In this document: piece after piece, positions 29,847 through 39,860 of the stretch
Numbering within the stretch: position 1 is the stretch's first letter
Layout of the letters: each line of letters begins with the position of its first letter
Assembly: GCA_023818695.1 (NCBI GenBank)
Contig: JAMWCF010000002.1
Location: 64,066 to 128,065, forward strand
Reading direction: 5' to 3'
From: Candidatus Omnitrophota bacterium
Lineage (GTDB): Bacteria > Omnitrophota > Gorgyraeia > 1-14-0-20-64-10
Length of the DNA: 64,000 nucleotides
Position numbers and translations under genes: made by a program
The notes under the pieces: generated by a model
Told to the model about the DNA's origin: nothing
Seen by the model: only the letters and a program-made list of their open reading frames with translations
Databases searched by the model: none

Positions 29847-30424
29847 ATCCACCCGGCGATCCGGCGGCCAACATGGCCGAGGATGAAAAGCTGGCCCAGG
29901 CCGTCCGGAAAGGGGCCCCCCCTGCCTTGCGGATCTACGGTTGGGAGCGGCCAGCCGTTTCGATCGGCCGTCGGCAGAAAAAAGAGGATCTCCCCGAAGA
30001 GATCCTTTCCCAGGATCTTCCCGTGGTGCGGCGTCCCACCGGCGGAGGGATCGTCGTCCATTCCGGCCAGGAGGTTACTTATTCTCTCGCTTTCCCGCTG
30101 TGCCTTATCCCGAAAGGAGTTCGCGTCAGCGCCCTTCCCGTTTCGCTGCACCGGCAGGTGAAGGATTTGCTGGAAAATGCCTCTCCGGATCTCTCGGGGC
30201 AGCTGCGGGTGGCTCCTCGCGACGCCGGAGGGCCTTATCACCTCTGTTTCTCCGCGCCGGTGTGCGGAGACATCCTGCTGGATTCCAAAAAGGTCGCTGG
30301 CTGCGCCGTCCGGGTCTGGAAAGAGGCGGTGCTGATGCAGGGGTCCATCCAGGGGATCCCTCTGCCAGCCGGCCGATGGAGGGAGATCCTCTGCGAAGCG
30401 GTGAGGAGGACTTTCCCGGGGTGA
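29822..30424 (+). CDS. Biotin/lipoate A/B protein-ligase family protein (LplA/LipB-like, probably lipoylates GcvH)
   Basis: GTG start overlapping the gcvPB end. ANMAEDEKL, LRIYGWERPAVSIGRRQ, VVRRPTGGGIVVH and LDSKKVAGCAVR. Confidence 0.6.
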   Translation: MESWRILLDPPGDPAANMAEDEKLAQAVRKGAPPALRIYGWERPAVSIGRRQKKEDLPEEILSQDLPVVRRPTGGGIVVHSGQEVTYSLAFPLCLIPKGVRVSALPVSLHRQVKDLLENASPDLSGQLRVAPRDAGGPYHLCFSAPVCGDILLDSKKVAGCAVRVWKEAVLMQGSIQGIPLPAGRWREILCEAVRRTFPG

Positions 30425-32652
30425 ATCCGCGCCGGCTGGTTCCTTTCGTCACCGTCATTGTTCCGGTACGGAACGAGGAAGGAACGATCGGTGCCTGTCT
30501 GGAGAGTTTGGTCAAGCAGGATTATCCCTCCGGCTGTTTCGAGATCCTGGTCGTAGACAACGGTTCCATCGACCGAACGCCGGAGATCCTGCACCGCTTT
30601 CCGGTCCGGGTGGTCAGGGAACCGGTCCCTGGGGCCGCCCGGGCGCGCAACAGAGGGGCCTGCGAGGCGGCGGGGGAGATCCTGGCCTTTATCGACGCGG
30701 ACTGCACCGCCGCGTCGAACTGGTTGTCGGCTCTTATCGGCGCACTGGAGCGGGAACCGTCCGCCGCATTTGCCGGCGCCGACGTTGTTTCGGGCAGGAA
30801 ATCGGTCCTGGCCGGTTACCTGAACTGGAGGGGATTTGGTTTCTTCCGGGAAGACACCGGTTGCCCGGCTGATCCCTCGGGGGTGCCGTGGCTGATGACC
30901 GGCAATCTGGCGGTCCGGCGGGAGCCGTTTGAATCGGTCGGCGGGTTCGATGCGTCACTCCTGCCCGGCGAAGATATCGATTTTTCCTGGAGGATGCTGC
31001 TTTTGGGGTGGTATCCGGTTTTTGTCCCCGACGCCGCCGTGACCGAAAACCGGCCTTACGACGTCCGGTCCTTCTGCAGGAAAAACTTCCGGACAGGCCG
31101 CGTCTCTTTGATCCTCCAACGGCGTTTTCGCGACCTGTGGTCCGAATGGGGCATCGTTCCGGCCGGCCGCTGCAGGGACCGGGGATTCGCGGGCAAACTG
31201 GTCAGCCGGCTGAAATCGGTTTTCCCCGGAATGGCCGATCTCCTTTCCTCGCGCAGGTGGGCTTACCTCTTTCTGCTTGTTATGAGCCACCTCTGTTTCC
31301 GGTTCGGCCGGCTGGCCCAGCGTTTCAGCCGGGTTCCCGACACGACCGCCGTGCCCGCCGGATCGACCCGCTTTTTCCCCCACCCGCTCCTGCGCTGTCT
31401 GCCTTTGCAGCCGGAAGAGAAGCTGGTTTACCTCTGCGCCGTCTGGAGAGGGCAGGGAGGTGGAGATCAGGCCGTCCGCCGTCTTCTTGCCGGGATTACC
31501 GACTGGGACCGGCTCCTGCAGGGATGCGCCCGCCACAAGTTGCAACCCCGTTTTTTCGCCCTCTTGAAGCGGTGCGGTGCGCAGGCCTTTTTGCCGCCTG
31601 ATCTCTGGCGGAAGATAGAATCTTTCTGCGTTGAATCGCAGGTTTACACCTGCGCCGTCGATTCGGAGCTGACCTGGCTGCTGCCTGCTTTCCATCAAGC
31701 CGGGGTTGAGCCGATGCTTTTGAAGGGGGCGGCGCTCCAGCAGACCGTTTACCGGGGCGAGCCCGGCCGGTTTTATGTGGATCTGGATCTGATGGTCCGG
31801 GGCATCGGCCGGCGGGAGATGGTGGCTCTCATGGACCGCCTGGGGTACCGTCCGATGCCTGTCCGGTCGCCGCTGCCGAGCCGCTGGCATGAACAGGCCC
31901 TGCGGTTCGAAGAGGGCGAGGTCAGCTTTCCGTTCATTCACCAGGAAAGAGGGATCCACGTCGACCTTCATGTCGAGCCGTTTGCCGACCGGTCGCCGGT
32001 CCGCCTGCCTGCCGGATGGATCTGGCAGGAGGCGCGTTCAGCCGAAGTGGCACAGTCGCAAGCGTTTCTGCCGGAGCCGACCCGCCTTTTCACGCATATC
32101 CTGTTTCATCTGGCGAAACATGCCGCCGGTGGGGAACATCGTTTGGGCTGGTATCTCGATCTGGACGAAACAGCCCGTTTTTACGAAGGGCAATTGGACG
32201 GTCCTCTGTGCGCGCGGATCATACGGACCGCCGACCATCCGAGGATGCTCGCCCGGGTTCTGCTGTTTTTGAAGAGCCACTTCGGCACGCCGCTGCCGCC
32301 GGAGGTAGAGGGCATGATTCCGGTTTTCCAGCCGGAGCCGTTTTCCCTCCGGGATCTTTTTTATTCTCCGCGGCGGCCGGATATCGCCGGCTTCCTGCGG
32401 CCCGACTGGACGGATAGGCGGGAGACTTTTATGGTCTATGTGAGGGAAATCCCCCGATGGCCGGCTAAGATCCTGTTCGTCCTGAAGTGGGTTTTCCCGG
32501 CCCCCGCCTATCTCCGGACGAAATACCGGTCTGCCGGGATCTTCGGGATCCCCATCGGCTATGTGAGACACTGGACGGCGGTAGTGGTGAAAGCATCGGT
32601 TGTGGCAGCTTATGGATACCGGCTTTTCAAGGGCGGGAGACAGCGGCTATAA
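30421..32652 (+). CDS. Fusion protein: family-2 glycosyltransferase (N) + PF14907-type uncharacterised nucleotidyltransferase (C)
   Basis: Part of ORF 29941..32652. The likely start is the GTG at 30421 (GTGA overlap with the upstream stop) or the ATG at 30376. GT2 motifs: VTVIVPVRNEE, EILVVDNGSIDRT, AFIDADC and LLPGEDIDFSWR. C-terminal half: LLKGAALQQTVYRGEPGRFYVDLDLMV, typical of NTP_transf_5. Confidence 0.75.
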   Translation: MNPRRLVPFVTVIVPVRNEEGTIGACLESLVKQDYPSGCFEILVVDNGSIDRTPEILHRFPVRVVREPVPGAARARNRGACEAAGEILAFIDADCTAASNWLSALIGALEREPSAAFAGADVVSGRKSVLAGYLNWRGFGFFREDTGCPADPSGVPWLMTGNLAVRREPFESVGGFDASLLPGEDIDFSWRMLLLGWYPVFVPDAAVTENRPYDVRSFCRKNFRTGRVSLILQRRFRDLWSEWGIVPAGRCRDRGFAGKLVSRLKSVFPGMADLLSSRRWAYLFLLVMSHLCFRFGRLAQRFSRVPDTTAVPAGSTRFFPHPLLRCLPLQPEEKLVYLCAVWRGQGGGDQAVRRLLAGITDWDRLLQGCARHKLQPRFFALLKRCGAQAFLPPDLWRKIESFCVESQVYTCAVDSELTWLLPAFHQAGVEPMLLKGAALQQTVYRGEPGRFYVDLDLMVRGIGRREMVALMDRLGYRPMPVRSPLPSRWHEQALRFEEGEVSFPFIHQERGIHVDLHVEPFADRSPVRLPAGWIWQEARSAEVAQSQAFLPEPTRLFTHILFHLAKHAAGGEHRLGWYLDLDETARFYEGQLDGPLCARIIRTADHPRMLARVLLFLKSHFGTPLPPEVEGMIPVFQPEPFSLRDLFYSPRRPDIAGFLRPDWTDRRETFMVYVREIPRWPAKILFVLKWVFPAPAYLRTKYRSAGIFGIPIGYVRHWTAVVVKASVVAAYGYRLFKGGRQRL

Positions 32653-32662
32653 TCAAAGGCAG

Positions 32663-32953
32663 ATGAATATCGGCTCGATCCGCATACCGCAGAAGATAAT
32701 GGGCAAGAAGCTGGGGTCGGAATGGGTCCTCTTGAATCTGGACAACGGCGTTTACTACGGACTCAATGAAACCGGCAGCGTCATCTGGGATGAATTGGCC
32801 GCCGGCACCAACGGATGGGAATCGGTCGTCGGTCGCCTCGAGGGGATGTATGAAGCCGACCGGTCCGAACTGGAAAAGGACGTGAGGGAATTTCTTCGTC
32901 ACCTGCACAAAGAGAGACTGATCGAGCTTGAAGGACCTCTTCCGGAAGATTAA
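32663..32953 (+). CDS. PqqD-family RiPP recognition element (lasso peptide B1)
   Basis: ATG at 32663 within ORF 32600..32953. WVLLNLDNGVYYGLNETGSVIWDEL...DVREFLRHLHKERLIEL. Confidence 0.8.
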   Translation: MNIGSIRIPQKIMGKKLGSEWVLLNLDNGVYYGLNETGSVIWDELAAGTNGWESVVGRLEGMYEADRSELEKDVREFLRHLHKERLIELEGPLPED

Positions 32954-33371
32954 AACCGTCCGGTCCTGGCGGGCCGGCCAGCGGCGGTTGTTCATAGAGG
33001 CGTGCCTTTCTTTCTGGAAGGCGCGCTTTTTTCTTTTCACGTATGGTTCCCGCTTCGTCGAGCGTTTCGTTTCGGACGGCCGGGACGGCCGCCTTGAACC
33101 GGACTGTCCGGTGCCGGAGCTGATCCGAGCTTTCCGGACCGCCCAGCGCAATCAGCCGCTGCGGCCCACCTGTCTTGTTTCAGCCATCGCCGAAAGGATC
33201 TTTCTGGAGCGCCACGGTGTTTCGGCCCGTGTCCGGATTGGGGTCCGGAAAGAAGGGAAAGGGATTCACGCGCACGCTTGGTGTGTGGTGATGGGGCGCT
33301 CTGACGGCGGGGAGATGCAGTTCGCTCCTCTGGAGATGGCCGGTTCCCCACGGAAGGGGGAATCGCTGTGA
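32928..33371 (+). CDS. Lasso peptide leader peptidase B2 (transglutaminase-like Cys protease)
   Basis: TTG start. Catalytic-type Cys (RPTCLVSAIAERIFL) and His (GIHAHAWCVV), as in the McjB C-terminal domain. Confidence 0.8.
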   Translation: MKDLFRKIKTVRSWRAGQRRLFIEACLSFWKARFFLFTYGSRFVERFVSDGRDGRLEPDCPVPELIRAFRTAQRNQPLRPTCLVSAIAERIFLERHGVSARVRIGVRKEGKGIHAHAWCVVMGRSDGGEMQFAPLEMAGSPRKGESL

Positions 33372-35356
33372 GCGCTATCGCCGGCTTGTGTCGCTGGGAC
33401 GGAAAGCCAGTCGACCCATCGGCCGCCTTGCGGATGGTCCGCGCCATGCCACACCGCTGCCCGGACGGCGTCTCCGGCTGGGCGGATGAATCGGCCGCGC
33501 TGGCCCACGGGTTGCTGCGCTGCGGCGCGGCGGATGCCGCCGGAACGGCACCGACCGTTTCACGGGACGGGTCTACGGCTGTCACCGCCGACGCGCGGTT
33601 TGACAACCGGCAGGAACTGCTCTCGCAGTTGGCTCTTCCTGCCGGGTCGGACCTGTCGGACGGCGGGCTGATGATAGCCGCTTACAGGCGTTGGGGCGAG
33701 GAGTTCATCCGCCGCCTGGCGGGAGATTTTGCCTTTTGCCTCTGGGACCGGAGAAAGAGGATTGTCCTGTGCGGCCGGGACCATCTGGGGGTTAAGCCGT
33801 TCTACTATTACGCCGGCGGCCGGTTTTTCGCTTTTTCATCCGAGATCAAAGGGTTGTGGTCTCTTGAAGGCATTCCCCGCCGGCTCAACGAAACCCGGAT
33901 CGCCGATTACCTCCACTCCCTTTTGGAGGATGCGGAGGCGACATTCTTTCAGGAGATCCTCCGGTTGCCTCCGGCACACCTGCTCATTGTTTCCCCGTTC
34001 AAAAAGGAGCTCCGCAGGTACTGGGAGGTCCGTTCGGCGTCTCCAGTCTGCTTTCGGAACGACGCGGATTATGAAGAGGCCTTCCTTTCGGTTTTTCAGG
34101 AGGCGGTCCGGTGCCGCCTCCGCGGCGTTTCAAAGGCCGGCGTCCTCTTGAGCGGTGGGCTGGATTCCTCCGGGGTCGCCGCCGTCGCCGCTGCCTTTTT
34201 CCATGAAGAGGGAAGGGGATCCCTGCCTGTTTTTTCCGCCACCTTCGAGCAGGTCCCGGAATCGGACGAACAGGAGTTCAGCCGCCAGGTCGTGTCGGAT
34301 GGGATGCGGCTCCATCGGGTGGCGGCGGACCGGATCAGCCCGCTGGCGGATCTGGACTCGCTCCTTTTCCATCAGGACGAGCCGTTTTACGCCCCGAACC
34401 TTTTCATGCACTGGGCGCTTTTCCGAAGCGGGAGAGAGGCCGGGGTCCGGGTGATGCTGGACGGCTTGGATGGGGACACCACCGTCTGCCACGCGACCGC
34501 CCGGTTAACGGAGCTGTTGGGCAGGGGGCGGTGGACCGCTTTTATCCGGGAGAGCCGGCTTTTTGCCGGCCGGCACGACCGTCCGTTCGGCCGTGTCATC
34601 TGGGAAAAGGGTTTCCGGCCTTACTTTCTGCGGGCGGTGCATTTGGTGCGCCGTCCGAGACGCGTGGGAATGGTCGGCCATGAGCCGATCATCCATCCGG
34701 AGCTGGAAAGGAGAACCGGTTACCGGTTACGGGCTTTCCGCCTGCGGCGCGGGCGGTGGGATCCTTCGTTGAGCGTCCGGGACGAACACCACAGAAGATT
34801 GACCAGCGGGATGATTCCGTTCGTCCTCGAGGTGGCGGATCGGACGGCCGCCCCCTTTTGCCTCGAGGCGCGCTATCCGTTCTTCGACAAGAGGGTGGTC
34901 GAGTTCTGTTATGGGCTGCCTTCCGGGCAGAAATTCCTCCAGGGATGGACCCGCTCCATTGAACGGAGGGCCTTCACCAGAGTGTTGCCGGCGCCGGTTT
35001 GTTGGCGGGCTAAAAAGGGGAACCTCGGTCCCAATTTCGACCGAGCTCTGGCGAAATTTGAGAGGCAGAGAGTGAATCGTCTTATAATGGGAAAAATAGA
35101 GGTGTTGGAACCGTATGTTTCAATGGAGGTCCTCCGGCGCGTTGGCAGGCGTTTTCTGGATTCCGGATCCAGTCTTGACGCCATGGGCGTCTGGAAGGCG
35201 CTGACGCTGGGTTTGTGGTTGGAACGGTTCCATGGCGGAGGGTCACCGGACATAAAAGAGGAGGCCACACAATGGACAAAAAAAGAGAAAACCCAAGCCG
35301 GGATAGCCAGCAGGCAGACAAGGCAGAGCGGAGAACTTACACGCCACCCCGCCTGA
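33368..35356 (+). CDS. Asparagine-synthetase-like lasso peptide cyclase (C)
   Basis: GTGA overlap with B2. The N-terminus is MSAIAG, so Cys2 is replaced by Ser and no glutaminase nucleophile is present. PP-loop LLSGGLDSS. The last 85 nt overlap the precursor ORF in another frame. Confidence 0.85.
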   Translation: MSAIAGLCRWDGKPVDPSAALRMVRAMPHRCPDGVSGWADESAALAHGLLRCGAADAAGTAPTVSRDGSTAVTADARFDNRQELLSQLALPAGSDLSDGGLMIAAYRRWGEEFIRRLAGDFAFCLWDRRKRIVLCGRDHLGVKPFYYYAGGRFFAFSSEIKGLWSLEGIPRRLNETRIADYLHSLLEDAEATFFQEILRLPPAHLLIVSPFKKELRRYWEVRSASPVCFRNDADYEEAFLSVFQEAVRCRLRGVSKAGVLLSGGLDSSGVAAVAAAFFHEEGRGSLPVFSATFEQVPESDEQEFSRQVVSDGMRLHRVAADRISPLADLDSLLFHQDEPFYAPNLFMHWALFRSGREAGVRVMLDGLDGDTTVCHATARLTELLGRGRWTAFIRESRLFAGRHDRPFGRVIWEKGFRPYFLRAVHLVRRPRRVGMVGHEPIIHPELERRTGYRLRAFRLRRGRWDPSLSVRDEHHRRLTSGMIPFVLEVADRTAAPFCLEARYPFFDKRVVEFCYGLPSGQKFLQGWTRSIERRAFTRVLPAPVCWRAKKGNLGPNFDRALAKFERQRVNRLIMGKIEVLEPYVSMEVLRRVGRRFLDSGSSLDAMGVWKALTLGLWLERFHGGGSPDIKEEATQWTKKEKTQAGIASRQTRQSGELTRHPA

Positions 35357-35436
35357 CAAAACACGGATCAGTCAAAAAGCTGACCCGGATGTTGGGAGGA
35401 CTGCAGCCGGACGGATACACCGGCGACCCCTCTTGA
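35272..35436 (+). CDS. Lasso peptide precursor (A), 54 aa: MDKKRENPSRDSQQADKAERRTYTPPRLTKHGSVKKLTR / MLGGLQPDGYTGDPS
   Basis: Internal ATG of ORF 35215..35436, preceded by AAGAGGAGG 8 nt upstream. Leader motif Y-x-x-P-x-L-x-x-x-G-x5-T (YTPPRLTKHGSVKKLT) with Thr at -2. Predicted core has Asp at position 8 and a C-terminal Ser. Lies between the cyclase and kinase genes. Confidence 0.75.
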   Translation: MDKKRENPSRDSQQADKAERRTYTPPRLTKHGSVKKLTRMLGGLQPDGYTGDPS

Positions 35437-35465
35437 GCCGGTAGGGCGGGAGGTCTCGCCGCGCC

Positions 35466-36377
35466 ATGCGCCGGTTTCGTTATTCCCTTTATGGATTGGT
35501 GATTGACACCAACATTTCCTTCGCCGGTTTGGCACGCGCCGACGGGGAAGCGGATGTCGTGATCCGGTTCGGAACGCTTGATCGTTTGCCCTCTGCCGGG
35601 CGCCGACGTCCGTACGCCGTTTCTTTCTCCGGGCATGAAGCGCTCATCGGCTGGAAGGGGATCGGCCGGTTTCATGTCATGGGCGGCCGTCATGTGCTGG
35701 TTGATTCCGATCCGGGCGTTTATCCGCCGCTGCTTCAGCAGGTAATCGTGGGGTCGGTGATGGGAATCGTCCTGCATCAACGGCGTCTGCTGGTCCTTCA
35801 CGCCAGCGCCGTTGCCTTGGGAAACGAAGCGGTCCTTTTCCTCGGCGGCAAGGGATGGGGGAAATCGACCCTCGCGGCCTTCATGGTTTCCAAGGGGGCC
35901 GACCTGGTTGCGGATGATGTGGCGGCGGTTGATTGGAGGGACGGTCGGCCCGTGGTCCTGCGGGGTAACCTCCAGTTGCGGCTTTGGCCGGACGCCCTGT
36001 CGGCTCTGGGAGAGTCGCCGGCCGGCTTTCAGAAAGCGGTTCCATCGCAGGAAAAGAGGATCTGTCCCCCCCGTTCTTTTTTGGAGAGGACATTTTCCCC
36101 CATCCGCCGCATCTACCTGCTGCAGAAGAGCCGCCGGATTCGGGTTGAAAAAATAGCCGCCGCCGGTGCCGCCATCGAATTGATCCGCCATTCCTACCGG
36201 GTCGAATGGCTGCACGACGCCGATCCCTCCGTCCACTTTTCACGGTGCACCGATCTGGCTTCCTCCGTCGCCGTCAGGCGGCTGCTGCGTCCGCTGGATT
36301 TCAGTCGTCTCGATGAAATTTATTCCGAGGTGAAAACCGATTGCTTCGAAGAGACCGCCGCGGGGCAGGTTGCCTGA
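35466..36377 (+). CDS. HPr-kinase-like serine kinase (lasso peptide tail kinase type)
   Basis: LLVLHASAVALGNEAVLFLGGKGWGKSTLAAFMVSKGADLVADDV matches the HprK C-terminal P-loop domain. Genomic context of a lasso cluster. Confidence 0.75.
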   Translation: MRRFRYSLYGLVIDTNISFAGLARADGEADVVIRFGTLDRLPSAGRRRPYAVSFSGHEALIGWKGIGRFHVMGGRHVLVDSDPGVYPPLLQQVIVGSVMGIVLHQRRLLVLHASAVALGNEAVLFLGGKGWGKSTLAAFMVSKGADLVADDVAAVDWRDGRPVVLRGNLQLRLWPDALSALGESPAGFQKAVPSQEKRICPPRSFLERTFSPIRRIYLLQKSRRIRVEKIAAAGAAIELIRHSYRVEWLHDADPSVHFSRCTDLASSVAVRRLLRPLDFSRLDEIYSEVKTDCFEETAAGQVA

Positions 36378-37606
36378 TGGGGCTTCTTGTCGTTATTCCC
36401 ACCTGGCACTTGACCTACCACCTGTGGCTTTACCGTTGTCTCCGGCGGCTGCAGCCCCACATTTCCATCGCGGCGGCCTGCACGCCGGGGGATCCTCAAT
36501 GGAGTGCCGGCTTTCGGACAGTCAACCTGGATGAGCCGGCCCCGCTGTGGGAAAGAGCGCTGCGAAGGACAGGCATTCCTGGGGATCTTTTTCAACCGGT
36601 TCGCCAACGCCGGCTTGAGCAGGCGGTCCGGGACAGCTCGGTGGACGCCGTTCTCATCCATTTTCTCGATTTCGCCCTTAAATTTTCCCCTGTATGGGAA
36701 CAAACCGGCAAGCCGATTTTCGTCCATTGTCACGGGCCCATGGACATCAACATCGATTTTCGCGACCACCGCCAGCCGGACCAGACGGCTCTACGGGAGG
36801 GGTACCGGGATGCGGTGGTCCGTTTCTCGAAGAGGGTGGTCCTGATCGCGAATTCTCATTGGACCGCCGGCTGTTTAACCAAGATGGGAGCCCCGTCTGA
36901 TCGGATCGTCGTCAAACATCTGGGGGTGCCTGTTCCGGACAGGCCGCCCGTTCGAAAGGGTGACTCCAACGGTTTGAACATTCTGTACCTCAACCAGCTG
37001 GTGGATTGGAAGGGGCCTGACCGGACCATTCAGGCGTTTGAGCTGGCCTGCAGCCGAGGTCTTGACGGGACATTGACCATCGCCGGGGACGGTCCTTTGA
37101 GGCCGATGTGCGAATTGACGGCTGCCAGGTCCCCCTATGCCAGCCGGATCCGGCTGGCGGGCGAGGTCGGTCCGGCGGATGCCGATCGGCTTCGTGCGCA
37201 GGCCGATTGCTTCACCGCGCACCACTGCGAGGGTGAGATTTCTCACGCCCAGGAGGCTTTCGGCGTTTCCGTCGTGGAGGCGATGGCCGCCGCCCTGCCG
37301 GTCGTCACGGGCCGCAGCGGGGCGTTGTCGGAAACCGTGGAACACGGCCGGACCGGCTGGTTGGTGGAACCAGGGGATATCGAGGCCCACGCGGATGCCC
37401 TTCTGCGTCTCTCCAGGGATCCGGCGCTGCGGTCATCAATGGGTGAGGCGGGATGGTTGCAGGCAAAAGAGCGTTTCAGTTTGGAGGGTGAGGTGGAAAA
37501 ACTTTTGGGCATCATTTATCCCTCCGCCCGATCTGAAAGGGCGGTGGGAGGAGATAGACAGGCCGTCGCGGCCGGATATCCGGAGCCGGCAAGGAGAAAG
37601 CTGTGA
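36377..37606 (+). CDS. Family-1 (GT4-type) glycosyltransferase
   Basis: The ATG at 36377 overlaps the kinase stop (TGATG). EAFGVSVVEAMAAALPVVTGRSGALSETVEHGRTGWLVEPGD is the E-x7-E region. Confidence 0.8.
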   Translation: MGLLVVIPTWHLTYHLWLYRCLRRLQPHISIAAACTPGDPQWSAGFRTVNLDEPAPLWERALRRTGIPGDLFQPVRQRRLEQAVRDSSVDAVLIHFLDFALKFSPVWEQTGKPIFVHCHGPMDINIDFRDHRQPDQTALREGYRDAVVRFSKRVVLIANSHWTAGCLTKMGAPSDRIVVKHLGVPVPDRPPVRKGDSNGLNILYLNQLVDWKGPDRTIQAFELACSRGLDGTLTIAGDGPLRPMCELTAARSPYASRIRLAGEVGPADADRLRAQADCFTAHHCEGEISHAQEAFGVSVVEAMAAALPVVTGRSGALSETVEHGRTGWLVEPGDIEAHADALLRLSRDPALRSSMGEAGWLQAKERFSLEGEVEKLLGIIYPSARSERAVGGDRQAVAAGYPEPARRKL

Positions 37607-38448
37607 AGCTCGGATTCCTCAAGCCCCTGGCCAGGATATGGGCGGCCACCCCCATCGGCCGTCGGCACAAAGCGTTCCTTCTTTCTTCTCTGGCGACCCG
37701 GGATGAGTTGGTGCGGGCTCTGCTTAAGCGGGATCCCAACTACTGCGTCCGGGCTCTGTTTTGGAATTACTTCTATTCCTCGACGTTCCGTAACGCGCTC
37801 AAGAACGGAAGCTATCCGGATCCGCCGGTCGTCCGGGGATTCGAGGACCTCACATGGCTTTTCGCGAGCCACTACGCCAATATGGGGATCGCCCTTTTGA
37901 ACCTCGATGAAGCGGCCTACCTTTACCGGCTCGCCGGGTCCCTCCGGCAGGCCAGACTCGCCGAGATCGGCCGGTACAAGGGAGGGTCTACATTTCTCCT
38001 GGCGGCCGCAATCGATGAGGGGTCGACCCTTCTGTCCGTTGATAACCATTCGGAGGGAGTTGTCCACGACTTGAAAGAGCAGGATGAATCCTTAAAGCGG
38101 ATCCTGGAGATCTTCCGTTTGGACGGAAAAGTCGATCTGGTCGTGGGGGATTCAACCGGCGTCCGCGTCGATCCGGAATCGATCGATCTCCTCTTTATCG
38201 ATGGCGACCATCGCTACGAATCGGTTCGCAGGGACTACCATCATTGGAAGGAGGCGTTGAAGCCGGGCGGGCACCTGCTCTTTCACGACGCCGACAACTC
38301 CCGGCCTTTTTCTATAGGGGATTGCCCACTTGGCGCGGTCGATTTCATGCGGGACATGAGAGAAACGGAAAGCAGGTTCTTTACGAGGACGAAGACGGTC
38401 GGTTCGCTCGTCCATTTCGTCCGGACCACCGTGCCGTTTGCAAGATAA
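37603..38448 (+). CDS. Class I SAM-dependent methyltransferase (Methyltransf_24-like)
   Basis: GTGA overlap with AAGGAG upstream. LAEIGRYKGGSTFLLA, LLFIDGDHRYESVRRDYHHW and LKPGGHLLFHD. Confidence 0.7.
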   Translation: MKLGFLKPLARIWAATPIGRRHKAFLLSSLATRDELVRALLKRDPNYCVRALFWNYFYSSTFRNALKNGSYPDPPVVRGFEDLTWLFASHYANMGIALLNLDEAAYLYRLAGSLRQARLAEIGRYKGGSTFLLAAAIDEGSTLLSVDNHSEGVVHDLKEQDESLKRILEIFRLDGKVDLVVGDSTGVRVDPESIDLLFIDGDHRYESVRRDYHHWKEALKPGGHLLFHDADNSRPFSIGDCPLGAVDFMRDMRETESRFFTRTKTVGSLVHFVRTTVPFAR

Positions 38449-38748: not shown

Positions 38749-38843
38749 ATACTTCCAAAGTTCCCCTGTTGGTTTGGTGAGGCCGTTAAGCCGGGAGGCA
38801 CAGGACCTTTGTTAAATGACAGATGGGAACTTCGGAAGTATAG

Positions 38844-38927
<84 letters not shown>

Positions 38928-38939
38928 AAAAGAAGATTA

Positions 38940-39860
38940 ATGGCGACGAAACAGGATAACAGAAAGCGTTTGACCGCGTCAATCCGCCAGGGATTGGGAG
39001 CGGTCCGGGTCACGCAATTGAACCAGCTGATGGCCGGCCGCTCCGCGGTCGAAGGGAACTGGTCCTTGACGCCCCGGCATGAGATCCTCTACACCCGGTC
39101 CGGCGATAGGGAGGAGGCGGTTCTCCGGGGACGTCTGGCAGGCGCAGAGCCGGACGCCCTTCTTTTCCTGGTGAGCCAGACGCAGGAAGGGCAGCGCACG
39201 GAAACCCGCACGGTCCGGCTGCAGGGCCGTTGGGAAGCCGACCCCCTCAATCGGCTCGCCTTCCTTGTCGAGCGGGAAGAGGGGCGTTATGACCGTCTCA
39301 CGCTCGAGGGGATGTGGGAGGTCAACGACGCCCATCGGCTGATTTACCGCTCCGTCAGCCGTCCGGATTCGGGAAAGAGATCGACCGTGACCACCCTGAC
39401 TTTTCAAGGGGTTTGGGATATCGACGCTTCCAAGCGATTGGTCTATCTGCTGGATGCGGACGGGACATCCGGTTTCCGGTTCCGGGGCGCTTTTCAGACC
39501 CCCTCCATCCTGGCCAAGGAAGGTCGGATCCGCTACCAGGTCGGCATCGAGCTCAACGGCAAGCGCCGGTTTCAGACCGTCACCCTTTTCGGAAAATGGA
39601 AATTTTCCCGTGATTTGGCCCTTGAATTCGAGATGGACTACGGCAAGGGACGGAAGCGATCGATCCGGTTCGGCGCCGCGTACGAAGTCGGGCACCGCGG
39701 TTTCATCACGGCCCGGCTCATGAGCCGGGAGGGAAGACCTTTGGGGGTGGAGGTGGTTTTCGGCCTGGATCAGGTGTCGGCGGGGGGTCGGTTGTTCGGC
39801 CGATGGAGAAAATCCGGCAAGGAGACCACGGTGGAAGCCGGAGCCCGATGGCCGTGGTAG
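38940..39860 (+). CDS. Hypothetical repeat protein with about 5 tandem G-x-W beta modules
   Basis: Recurring module: LQGRWEADPLNRLAFLVE, LEGMWEVNDAHRLIYRSV, FQGVWDIDASKRLVYLLD, LFGKWKFSRDLALEFEMD. This internal periodicity favours the + ORF over the antisense 38979..39953 ORF. Confidence 0.55.
   Translation: MATKQDNRKRLTASIRQGLGAVRVTQLNQLMAGRSAVEGNWSLTPRHEILYTRSGDREEAVLRGRLAGAEPDALLFLVSQTQEGQRTETRTVRLQGRWEADPLNRLAFLVEREEGRYDRLTLEGMWEVNDAHRLIYRSVSRPDSGKRSTVTTLTFQGVWDIDASKRLVYLLDADGTSGFRFRGAFQTPSILAKEGRIRYQVGIELNGKRRFQTVTLFGKWKFSRDLALEFEMDYGKGRKRSIRFGAAYEVGHRGFITARLMSREGRPLGVEVVFGLDQVSAGGRLFGRWRKSGKETTVEAGARWPW

Follow-up and report, generated by a model that had tools for sequence, protein, structure and literature searches.

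A probable lasso peptide precursor gene overlapping the end of a cyclase gene in an Omnitrophota bacterium

A 64,000-nucleotide stretch of a Candidatus Omnitrophota genome (contig JAMWCF010000002.1 of assembly GCA_023818695.1, positions 64,066 to 128,065, here called the window) carries genes of a lasso peptide cluster: a recognition protein (B1), a leader peptidase (B2), a lasso cyclase (C), and an HPr-kinase-like enzyme (K). A 54-codon open reading frame (ORF) on the forward strand, 35272–35436, with B1, B2, and C immediately upstream, K downstream, and all of these genes on the plus strand, is the candidate precursor gene. We consider it highly probable, from sequence and gene context, that this ORF is a genuine and so far unannotated lasso precursor gene (A) of a B1-B2-C-A-K cluster, and that its product is cleaved after Arg39 to give a 15-residue core closed by a Met1–Asp8 macrolactam. 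In this explanation, translation begins independently at ATG 35272, behind a strong Shine-Dalgarno (SD) sequence located within a dispensable extension at the 3′ end of the cyclase ORF.

The precursor gene is unannotated in every source queried. It has no entry in public protein collections, the exact peptide was not found at either length (54 or 73 residues) in a collection of 15 billion proteins, and it was not called as a gene on the Logan contig L006. Its 85-nucleotide overlap with the cyclase ORF offers a reason why gene callers miss such genes.

The precursor gene, its leader, and its core

The start codon ATG (35272–35274) and the stop codon TGA (35434–35436) were read directly from the sequence, and translation of 35272–35436 gives MDKKRENPSRDSQQADKAERRTYTPPRLTKHGSVKKLTRMLGGLQPDGYTGDPS (54 residues). 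The SD sequence, AAGAGGAGG, occupies 35256–35264 on the plus strand, inside the cyclase coding region and 7 nt before the ATG. It is by far the best among the 10 cluster start sites inspected. The only form in the mechanical ORF list is a 73-residue GTG ORF (35215–35436). A first-pass annotation of this DNA had already pointed out that this longer ORF was the only one in the ORF track and that its internal ATG at 35272 yields a 54-residue peptide behind an SD sequence. Re-reading confirms all of this except the spacer, which had been given as 8 nt.

The leader peptide comprises residues 1–39, MDKKRENPSRDSQQADKAERRTYTPPRLTKHGSVKKLTR (35272–35388, plus strand), and its motif aligns with about 45 precursors that adjoin cyclase homologues. 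The pattern Y23-x2-P26-x-L28-x3-G32-x5-T38 is matched exactly. In all six frames of the window, the strict form Y..P.L...G.....T occurs once, against an expectation of 0.04 by analytic calculation and 0.115 from 200 shuffles. The NCBIfam model for lasso leaders, NF033521, scores the precursor at 25.4 bits over residues 23–42 (cut-off 19). Both results bear out the earlier proposal of a lasso leader motif YxxPxLxxxGxxxxxT at residues 23–38 with Thr at −2. The YxxPxL element itself, YTPPRL (residues 23–28, 35338–35355, plus strand), has a computed position of −17 to −12, the placement described in PMC10368454, and is the putative recognition motif for B1, the recognition element for peptides made on the ribosome and modified after translation (RiPPs). 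Thr38 (codon ACC, 35383–35385, plus strand) is Thr(−2), which according to PMC10368454 serves in recognition by the B2 leader peptidase.

The predicted core, MLGGLQPDGYTGDPS, has 15 residues (35389–35433, plus strand). Three features fix its register, namely Thr(−2), YxxPxL at −17, and the conserved Asp8. Because these three independent lines agree, cleavage is placed after Arg39 and the ring is drawn between Met1 and Asp8. Asp8 (codon GAC, 35410–35412, plus strand) is the predicted macrolactam acceptor for the Met1 amine; it is conserved in relatives and supplies the acidic residue needed at core position 7, 8, or 9. The C-terminal Ser15 (codon TCT, 35431–35433, plus strand) is, by analogy, a candidate phosphorylation site. 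In its leader, ring acceptor, and gene neighborhood, the ORF has the features of a split-B lasso precursor.

Homologous precursors occur at the equivalent position in other clusters. Metagenomes were scanned with an alignment of cyclase homologues, which gave 80 loci. Of the loci whose sequence continues beyond the cyclase, nearly all proved in a six-frame regular-expression scan to carry a small ORF with a leader; where the flank is long enough, the precursor is followed by an HPr-kinase-like gene. The recurrence of the C-A-K order across loci indicates a conserved architecture, which the window fits exactly. The first-pass annotation had suggested aligning small ORFs found after cyclase genes in related clusters, and dozens of clusters indeed have homologous precursors there. 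Among proteins, a word-indexed search with the 54-residue peptide gave no match. When 1.84 billion representative proteins were searched index-free with phmmer, two small precursors came up, P0122 (...LTR/AMSGSPSDGFSGGPDPLG, the slash marking the predicted cleavage site) and P0124 (MDDRRQENP...ITQ/LLAKGASDGMTGTSVL), and a profile search added P0125–P0130. The top phmmer match, P0121, was disregarded as a low-complexity repeat protein. The homologue contigs are lasso clusters with a kinase, NTP_transf_5, GT4, or Methyltransf_24 genes. Locus L087, for example, contains B2, a PqqD protein, the cyclase, three precursors, and the kinase, with NTP_transf_5, Methyltransf_24, GT4 genes, and MurJ nearby; L088 contains the cyclase end, a precursor, and a kinase.

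The cores of 20 sub-family members follow the pattern x7-D8-G9-(Y/F/M/L/I/A)10-(T/S/N/A)11-G12, with Asp8 in all 20 and Gly12 in 18. Thr(−2) is invariant in the homologue alignment, and the corresponding site in the window is Thr38-Arg39/Met40. The leader model match, the gene order, and the constant Asp8 sustain the cleavage site, the 15-residue core, and the Asp8 ring that had been proposed from the window alone. In the wider clade, 24 of 48 cores have Asp or Glu at position 8 only.

Two alternatives concern the reading of the gene itself. A start at GTG 35215, or a chance ORF in the GC-rich overlap region, might be argued from the mechanical list, in which GTG 35215 comes as the first start, and from the several spurious ORFs that overlap the precursor region on both strands. 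Its probability is next to negligible. GTG 35215 has no SD sequence upstream and is not conserved, and it was rejected as a start. The 19 extra residues of the longer form have no counterpart in homologues; from Met 35272, P0124 aligns at residue 1, and the N-terminus MD(K/D)(K/R)R(Q)ENP common to both supports ATG 35272 over GTG 35215. A chance ORF is excluded by the match to a curated model together with homologues in syntenic positions, and neither the overlapping minus-strand ORFs (35337–36236, 34909–35364, and 35082–35321) nor the 73-residue form has a Pfam match. It is also very improbable, on our assessment, that the gene is right and the register wrong, with cleavage one residue later (Leu1–Asp7, Thr at −3) or one earlier (Arg1–Asp9). 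Asp47 would then fall at 7 or 9, both of which are allowed ring sizes (PMC12480086), and the Thr(−2) rule is not absolute, as Ile or Val replaces this residue in some lineages (PMC10368454). Furthermore, an acceptor at positions 7–9 is missing under Thr(−2) from 16 of 48 clade cores, so this register does not explain the whole clade. However, Thr(−2) and YxxPxL at −17 to −12 independently give the same cleavage site, and it is this register that puts Asp at position 8 throughout the sub-family.

Internal initiation at ATG 35389 (Met40), which would produce a leaderless core, was considered separately and rejected, as aaaagctgacccgg contains no SD sequence and the leader is intact. The 29 nt after the precursor (35437–35465) were examined as a possible attenuator or terminator hairpin; the fold is no better than shuffles (z = +0.19), and a consensus terminator scan of the same interval gave nothing convincing.

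The first core residue is the most conspicuous feature of the predicted product. Among the 48 cores from the clade, Thr-x is followed by Gly in 13, Ala in 8, Gln in 6, Asn in 5, and Val in 3, with nine others making up the set G, A, Q, N, V, S, L, D, T, M, W, H, E, and K; Met occurs once. The sub-family has A, G, N, S, L, K, or M at this position, the last in the window only. According to PMC13632552, Gly and Ala predominate at position 1, a large-scale analysis found every residue except Pro there, and some lasso cyclases accept almost any first residue. Characterized peptides with an unusual residue 1 include fusilassin/cellulassin (Trp1), halolassin (Tyr1), metanodin (Asn1), and palassoptides (Phe1, Glu1) (bioRxiv 10.1101/2020.11.25.399105, PMC12670498, PMC13632552). 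Fusilassin, halolassin, metanodin, and the palassoptides demonstrate that some cyclase lineages accept a large or polar residue at this position, whereas Met1 of the window is a prediction. Met1 had been described as unusual. It is indeed rare, but many residues are found at position 1 within the clade, and Met1 is a small novelty rather than an anomaly.

Two further types of precursor were observed among the relatives. A core sub-family of the form xxxKxxGxxDGFxFxGxxIxxxS lies just downstream of the cyclase in L007, L008, L010, L013, L016, L019, L040, L043, and L050. When these cores are numbered from Thr(−2), no acidic residue beyond position 3 comes before Asp10, so that either the ring would exceed the usual 7–9 residues or cleavage would occur at a different site. 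The second type is fused to Peptidase_S74, the self-cleaving endosialidase intramolecular chaperone domain, which is found in the lasso precursor-like proteins of L096 and P0123. The 162-residue ORF L096:3573-4061, between the cyclase and the kinase, contains a leader, the core SLVLGASDGITGTQPL, and Peptidase_S74 from Ser58 (30.3 bits, cut-off 22). In P0123 (382 residues), a leader-core unit with an SDRxxKEGFAPVD motif behind it is repeated five times in tandem, and a single full S74 domain (59.7 bits) is present. These arrangements suggest that S74 self-cleavage defines the C-terminus of the core in precursors of this type. No literature link between lasso peptides and S74 was found.

Overlap with the cyclase gene

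The lasso cyclase (33368–35356, plus strand) has 662 residues, with Asn_synthase and GATase domains and a score of 629 bits against NF033535 (cut-off 525). MCM8812187.1, from a Candidatus Omnitrophota metagenome-assembled genome (MAG), has the identical sequence. Genome contigs scanned with the cyclase gave only 27–33% relatives, and the species of the MAG is apparently absent among GTDB representatives under the search patterns used. Cyclase homologues are typically about 631 residues long and end soon after a WLxR motif; the last ~35 residues of the window cyclase have no counterpart. For 85 nt (35272–35356, plus strand) this 3′ extension overlaps the precursor, which is read in the −1 frame; the stop codon of the cyclase falls inside the leader. 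The coordinates agree with the earlier statement that the first 85 nt of the precursor lie in another frame within the cyclase end. Its description as unusual does not hold, because cyclase genes of this clade repeatedly have a late stop or none, and such an overlap is typical.

The nearest neighbor of the window cyclase in a neighbor-joining tree, L095, has a precursor overlap of 73 nt, also out of frame, and cyclase-precursor overlaps are found in L022, L083, L092, and L093 as well. In 8 of the 120 best cyclase homologues (P0002, P0018, P0031, P0038, P0063, P0064, P0073, and P0075), the cyclase frame runs on through the complete precursor. These in-frame fusions are scattered over at least five places of the tree, and among them are sister pairs whose linkers are unrelated. 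The fused single ORF consists of cyclase, linker, complete lasso leader, and a 16-residue core (e.g., ...ITA/NIGTKGTDGLTGSTLV). DNA is available for four fused ORFs (L094:2147-4240, L097:4064-6160, L098:254-2350, and L099:1162-3219), and all four have an SD-like sequence and a start codon inside the ORF before the leader. The window precursor is not an in-frame fusion, as it lies in the −1 frame and the cyclase has its own stop at 35356. No paper describing lasso cyclase-precursor fusions was found. A nested, independently translated precursor is the simplest reading of these arrangements, with the window as the out-of-frame version of the same design.

The same overlap could also be read as a cyclase-precursor fusion that is made in part, through a −1 frameshift, transcriptional slippage, or an assembly error at a run of seven adenines (A7). 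This run (35278–35284, plus strand) reads A_AAA_AAA in the cyclase frame and encodes Lys-Lys in the precursor, and it is a potential −1 slippery site: a dnaX-type frameshift uses a heptamer X_XXY_YYZ, which is present here as A_AAA_AAA in the upstream frame. The precursor frame is exactly −1 to the cyclase, the heptamer falls at precursor codons 3–4 with AGGAGG 13 nt upstream, and in-frame precursors do exist at the C-terminus of the eight homologues mentioned above. Even so, we give this possibility an extremely slim chance. A downstream stem-loop stimulator was sought at 35285–35350, and the fold (−12.2 kcal/mol, z = −0.69 against shuffles) is not significant. The precursor owns an ideal SD sequence and ATG, and nested independent translation explains the fused ORFs, all of which retain an internal SD and start where DNA is available. 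In L095 the out-of-frame overlap has no comparable A run, A runs arise by chance from Lys-rich leader N-termini, and the A7 of the window is agreed by two assemblies.

Tailoring and threading of the predicted product

The ORF, the SD sequence, the motifs, the model match, the gene context, and the conservation of Asp8 and of the register were observed here; for cleavage, isopeptide bond, threading, and all tailoring, the known biochemistry of the family suggests the following course. The B1/PqqD protein would bind YTPPRL at −17 to −12, and B2 would cut after Arg39 using Thr(−2). The cyclase would then adenylate Asp8 and join it to the Met1 amine. The predicted product has an 8-membered macrolactam and a 7-residue tail, with [M+H]+ 1489.66. 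The adjacent HPr-kinase-like enzyme may phosphorylate the precursor, most likely at Ser15, after which a fusion of a GT2 glycosyltransferase with NTP_transf_5, a GT4 glycosyltransferase, and a methyltransferase may build a methylated sugar-phosphate on this residue. Such a group could be a steric lock, as bulky residues are missing from the tail below the ring. Our best guess, made by analogy, is a Ser15 with a phospho-glycosyl and possibly methylated group.

The tailoring kinase is encoded at 35466–36377 (plus strand). Five kinases adjoining related precursors show no variation in His112, the P-loop Lys133, or Asp150-Asp151. Matching to published motifs suggests that they correspond to the H-K-D-D motif of PadeK and ThcoK (PMC9266682) and to the catalytic pair D158/D159 of PsmK (PMC6993621). 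According to these sources, PadeK and PsmK modify a C-terminal Ser and the kinases act on the linear precursor (PMC9266682, PMC6993621). For pseudomycoidin, PsmN, a protein of the NTP_transf_5 type, is needed for the addition of a hexose to the phosphate (PMC6993621). The window precursor ends in ...GDPS followed by the stop codon, and P0126 and P0129 also end in Ser. The first-pass annotation had taken this Ser as a sign of a paeninodin-type peptide. The residue is there, but the inference is weaker than it appeared, because only a minority of the kinase-linked clade cores share it.

Several observations weigh against the preferred explanation of this locus. A C-terminal Ser is found in only 11 of 36 kinase-linked clade cores, and the precursors of L087, a locus whose P0122 core is among the closest to that of the window, end in G, N, and L. 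Since non-Ser endings are frequent, the kinase target may be another residue, such as the conserved Thr/Ser11. The kinase itself matches Pfam Hpr_kinase_C in part, and its 25.8 bits fall short of the gathering score (33.3). No ATP-binding cassette (ABC) exporter (D) is present between 26971 and 43353 or within ~5 kb of the cluster. The precursor scores 27.7 bits against NF033528 (lasso_cyano), below the cut-off of 33 and for the leader part only (residues 21–43). It is known from one MAG only, to which the Logan contig L006 is identical, and no close orthologue of the peptide was found, the best identity being 40–44%. A characterized Met1 lasso peptide was not found in the literature searched, and the tail shows no obvious lower plug.

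The remaining 25 of the 36 kinase-linked precursors, including those of L087, L088, L094, and L097–L099, end in L, V, A, I, G, N, and others. Position 11 is a conserved Thr/Ser in these cores instead.

The tail also raises the question of topology. In GYTGDPS, Tyr10 is the only bulky residue, and it had been named as a candidate plug; because it stands only two positions after the ring residue Asp8, we infer that it is sterically unlikely to act as a lower plug. The core might accordingly be cyclized and yet form no stable threaded lasso alone, being branched-cyclic unless a C-terminal modification locks it, or simply unthreaded. We judge this unlikely, though far from negligible. The tail G9-Y10-T11-G12-D13-P14-S15, with its single bulky residue close to the ring Asp, speaks for it, and so does the presence in the window cluster of K, an N-like domain, two glycosyltransferases, and a methyltransferase. 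On the other side, topology is not readable from sequence. Sungsanpin and chaxapeptin are lasso peptides of 15 residues with an 8-membered ring and a 7-residue tail, which counts against an unthreaded product. Conversely, pseudomycoidin made without the kinase and PsmN is not threaded, and its phospho-glycosyl group has been proposed as the lock (PMC6993621). A more far-reaching idea, which we rate as rather improbable, is that the nested or fused C-A arrangement is itself functional, through tight translational coupling or an occasional cyclase-substrate fusion (a −1 slip at A_AAA_AAA) that presents the substrate in cis, and that a plug-less Met1 15-mer is held threaded only by a methyl-glycosyl-phosphate that the kinase, the glycosyltransferases, and the methyltransferase would build on Ser15. 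The independently translated precursor with a Met1–Asp8 ring remains our preferred reading.

Neighboring genes and known systems

The starts of the B1, GT2 fusion, and GT4 genes were taken from gene calls on Logan contig L006. All genes of the cluster lie on the plus strand. The GT2 glycosyltransferase fused to a PsmN-like NTP_transf_5 domain is encoded at 30421–32652 (PF00535, 101 bits; PF14907 in the C-terminal half, 127.5 bits, cut-off 31.2). It is followed by B1, a PqqD-like RiPP recognition element (32612–32953; PF05402, 64.4 bits), and by B2, a transglutaminase-like leader peptidase (32928–33371; NF033537, 53.7 bits, cut-off 33; PF13471). Downstream of the kinase are the group 1 glycosyltransferase GT4 (36377–37606; PF00534, 91 bits) and an S-adenosylmethionine (SAM)-dependent methyltransferase of the Methyltransf_24 family (37603–38448; PF13578, 77 bits), the same family that adjoins the L087 cluster. 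The flanks are housekeeping genes, namely glycine-cleavage P proteins, LplA, an HD/HAMP protein (HD-GYP-type), and SmpB.

At the upstream border, the mechanical list gives a 903-residue TTG ORF (29941–32652, plus strand), the first ~160 residues of which are a low-complexity Arg/Pro/Gly read-through across the LplA-like gene. GTG 30421 is most likely the real start of the GT2 fusion, as on L006. Directly after the cluster, a 306-residue ORF (38940–39860, plus strand) is repeat-like and rich in Arg, Gly, and Glu, with no Pfam or NCBIfam match; a promoter-like site lies upstream of it at 38816–38844.

NTP_transf_5 also occurs in L087, L089, L093, L094, and L097, and in L093 it is fused to the B2 peptidase instead of a GT2. 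L087:1-6524 and L097:8286-13160 have polysaccharide-type flanks with GT4s, a MurJ flippase or Wzy_C, a carbamoyltransferase, methyltransferases, and a radical SAM/SPASM protein. By analogy, these flanks echo the GT4 and Methyltransf_24 genes of the window and hint at elaborate glycan tailoring.

The proposed gene supplies the missing substrate of a lasso cluster in Omnitrophota, which makes the product predictable and expressible. Hardly any natural products have been described from this candidate phylum, and no relevant paper on them was found. If made, the product would be the first characterized Met1 lasso peptide found, a novelty comparable to the Asn1 of metanodin (PMC12670498). As the PsmN-like domain is physically fused to a recognizable glycosyltransferase, the GT2-NTP_transf_5 fusion could help settle whether PsmN is a glycosyltransferase itself or the partner of one. 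The relatives contribute two arrangements for which no paper was found: in-frame cyclase-precursor ORFs and precursors with a self-cleaving Peptidase_S74.

Among the closest known systems is the pseudomycoidin cluster psmCAKB1B2ND of Bacillus pseudomycoides (PMC6993621). Like the window, it has a class II precursor ending in Ser, a split B1/B2, an HPr-kinase-like PsmK with Asp-Asp, and a nucleotidyltransferase of the PsmN type, and the modification has been proposed as a tail lock. The gene order is C-A-K-B1-B2-N-D in pseudomycoidin and N-B1-B2-C-A-K in the window, where the N-like domain is fused to a GT2, GT4 and Methyltransf_24 genes are extra, and the ABC exporter is absent. The accessory set of the window (kinase, GT2-PsmN-like fusion, GT4, and methyltransferase) is thus richer than that of pseudomycoidin. 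The predicted Met1–Asp8 core of 15 residues differs from the Ala1–Glu9 core of ~24 residues, and the hosts belong to Omnitrophota and Bacillota, respectively; the Psm proteins were compared by description only. Paeninodin from Paenibacillus dendritiformis and the polyphosphorylated lasso peptides of ThcoK and SyanK share a kinase acting on the linear precursor and a conserved C-terminal Ser, according to PMC9266682, citing Zhu et al. 2016. The "extremely conserved" C-terminal Ser reported for paeninodin-type clusters does not hold across the window clade, as its 11 cores out of 36 indicate. The bsf-type clusters of Bradymonadales (PMC10368454) resemble the window in YxxPxL at −17 to −12, an 8-membered ring closed at Asp8, B1, and the presence of K and N genes, but have Ile(−2) and Gly1 in place of Thr(−2) and Met1. 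The NF033528 lasso_cyano sub-family is alike in the leader half, but the precursor is not a member, since its score is below the cut-off.

With a kinase, a C-terminal Ser, and a PsmN-like domain, and lacking the exporter, the window has most of the hallmarks of kinase/PsmN-type clusters. The ORF at 35272–35436 is very probably a further example of this known type of lasso cluster. What distinguishes it is modest: Met1, the marked shortness of the core, a GT2-N fusion accompanied by an additional GT4 and methyltransferase, its origin in Omnitrophota, and the nested position of the gene.

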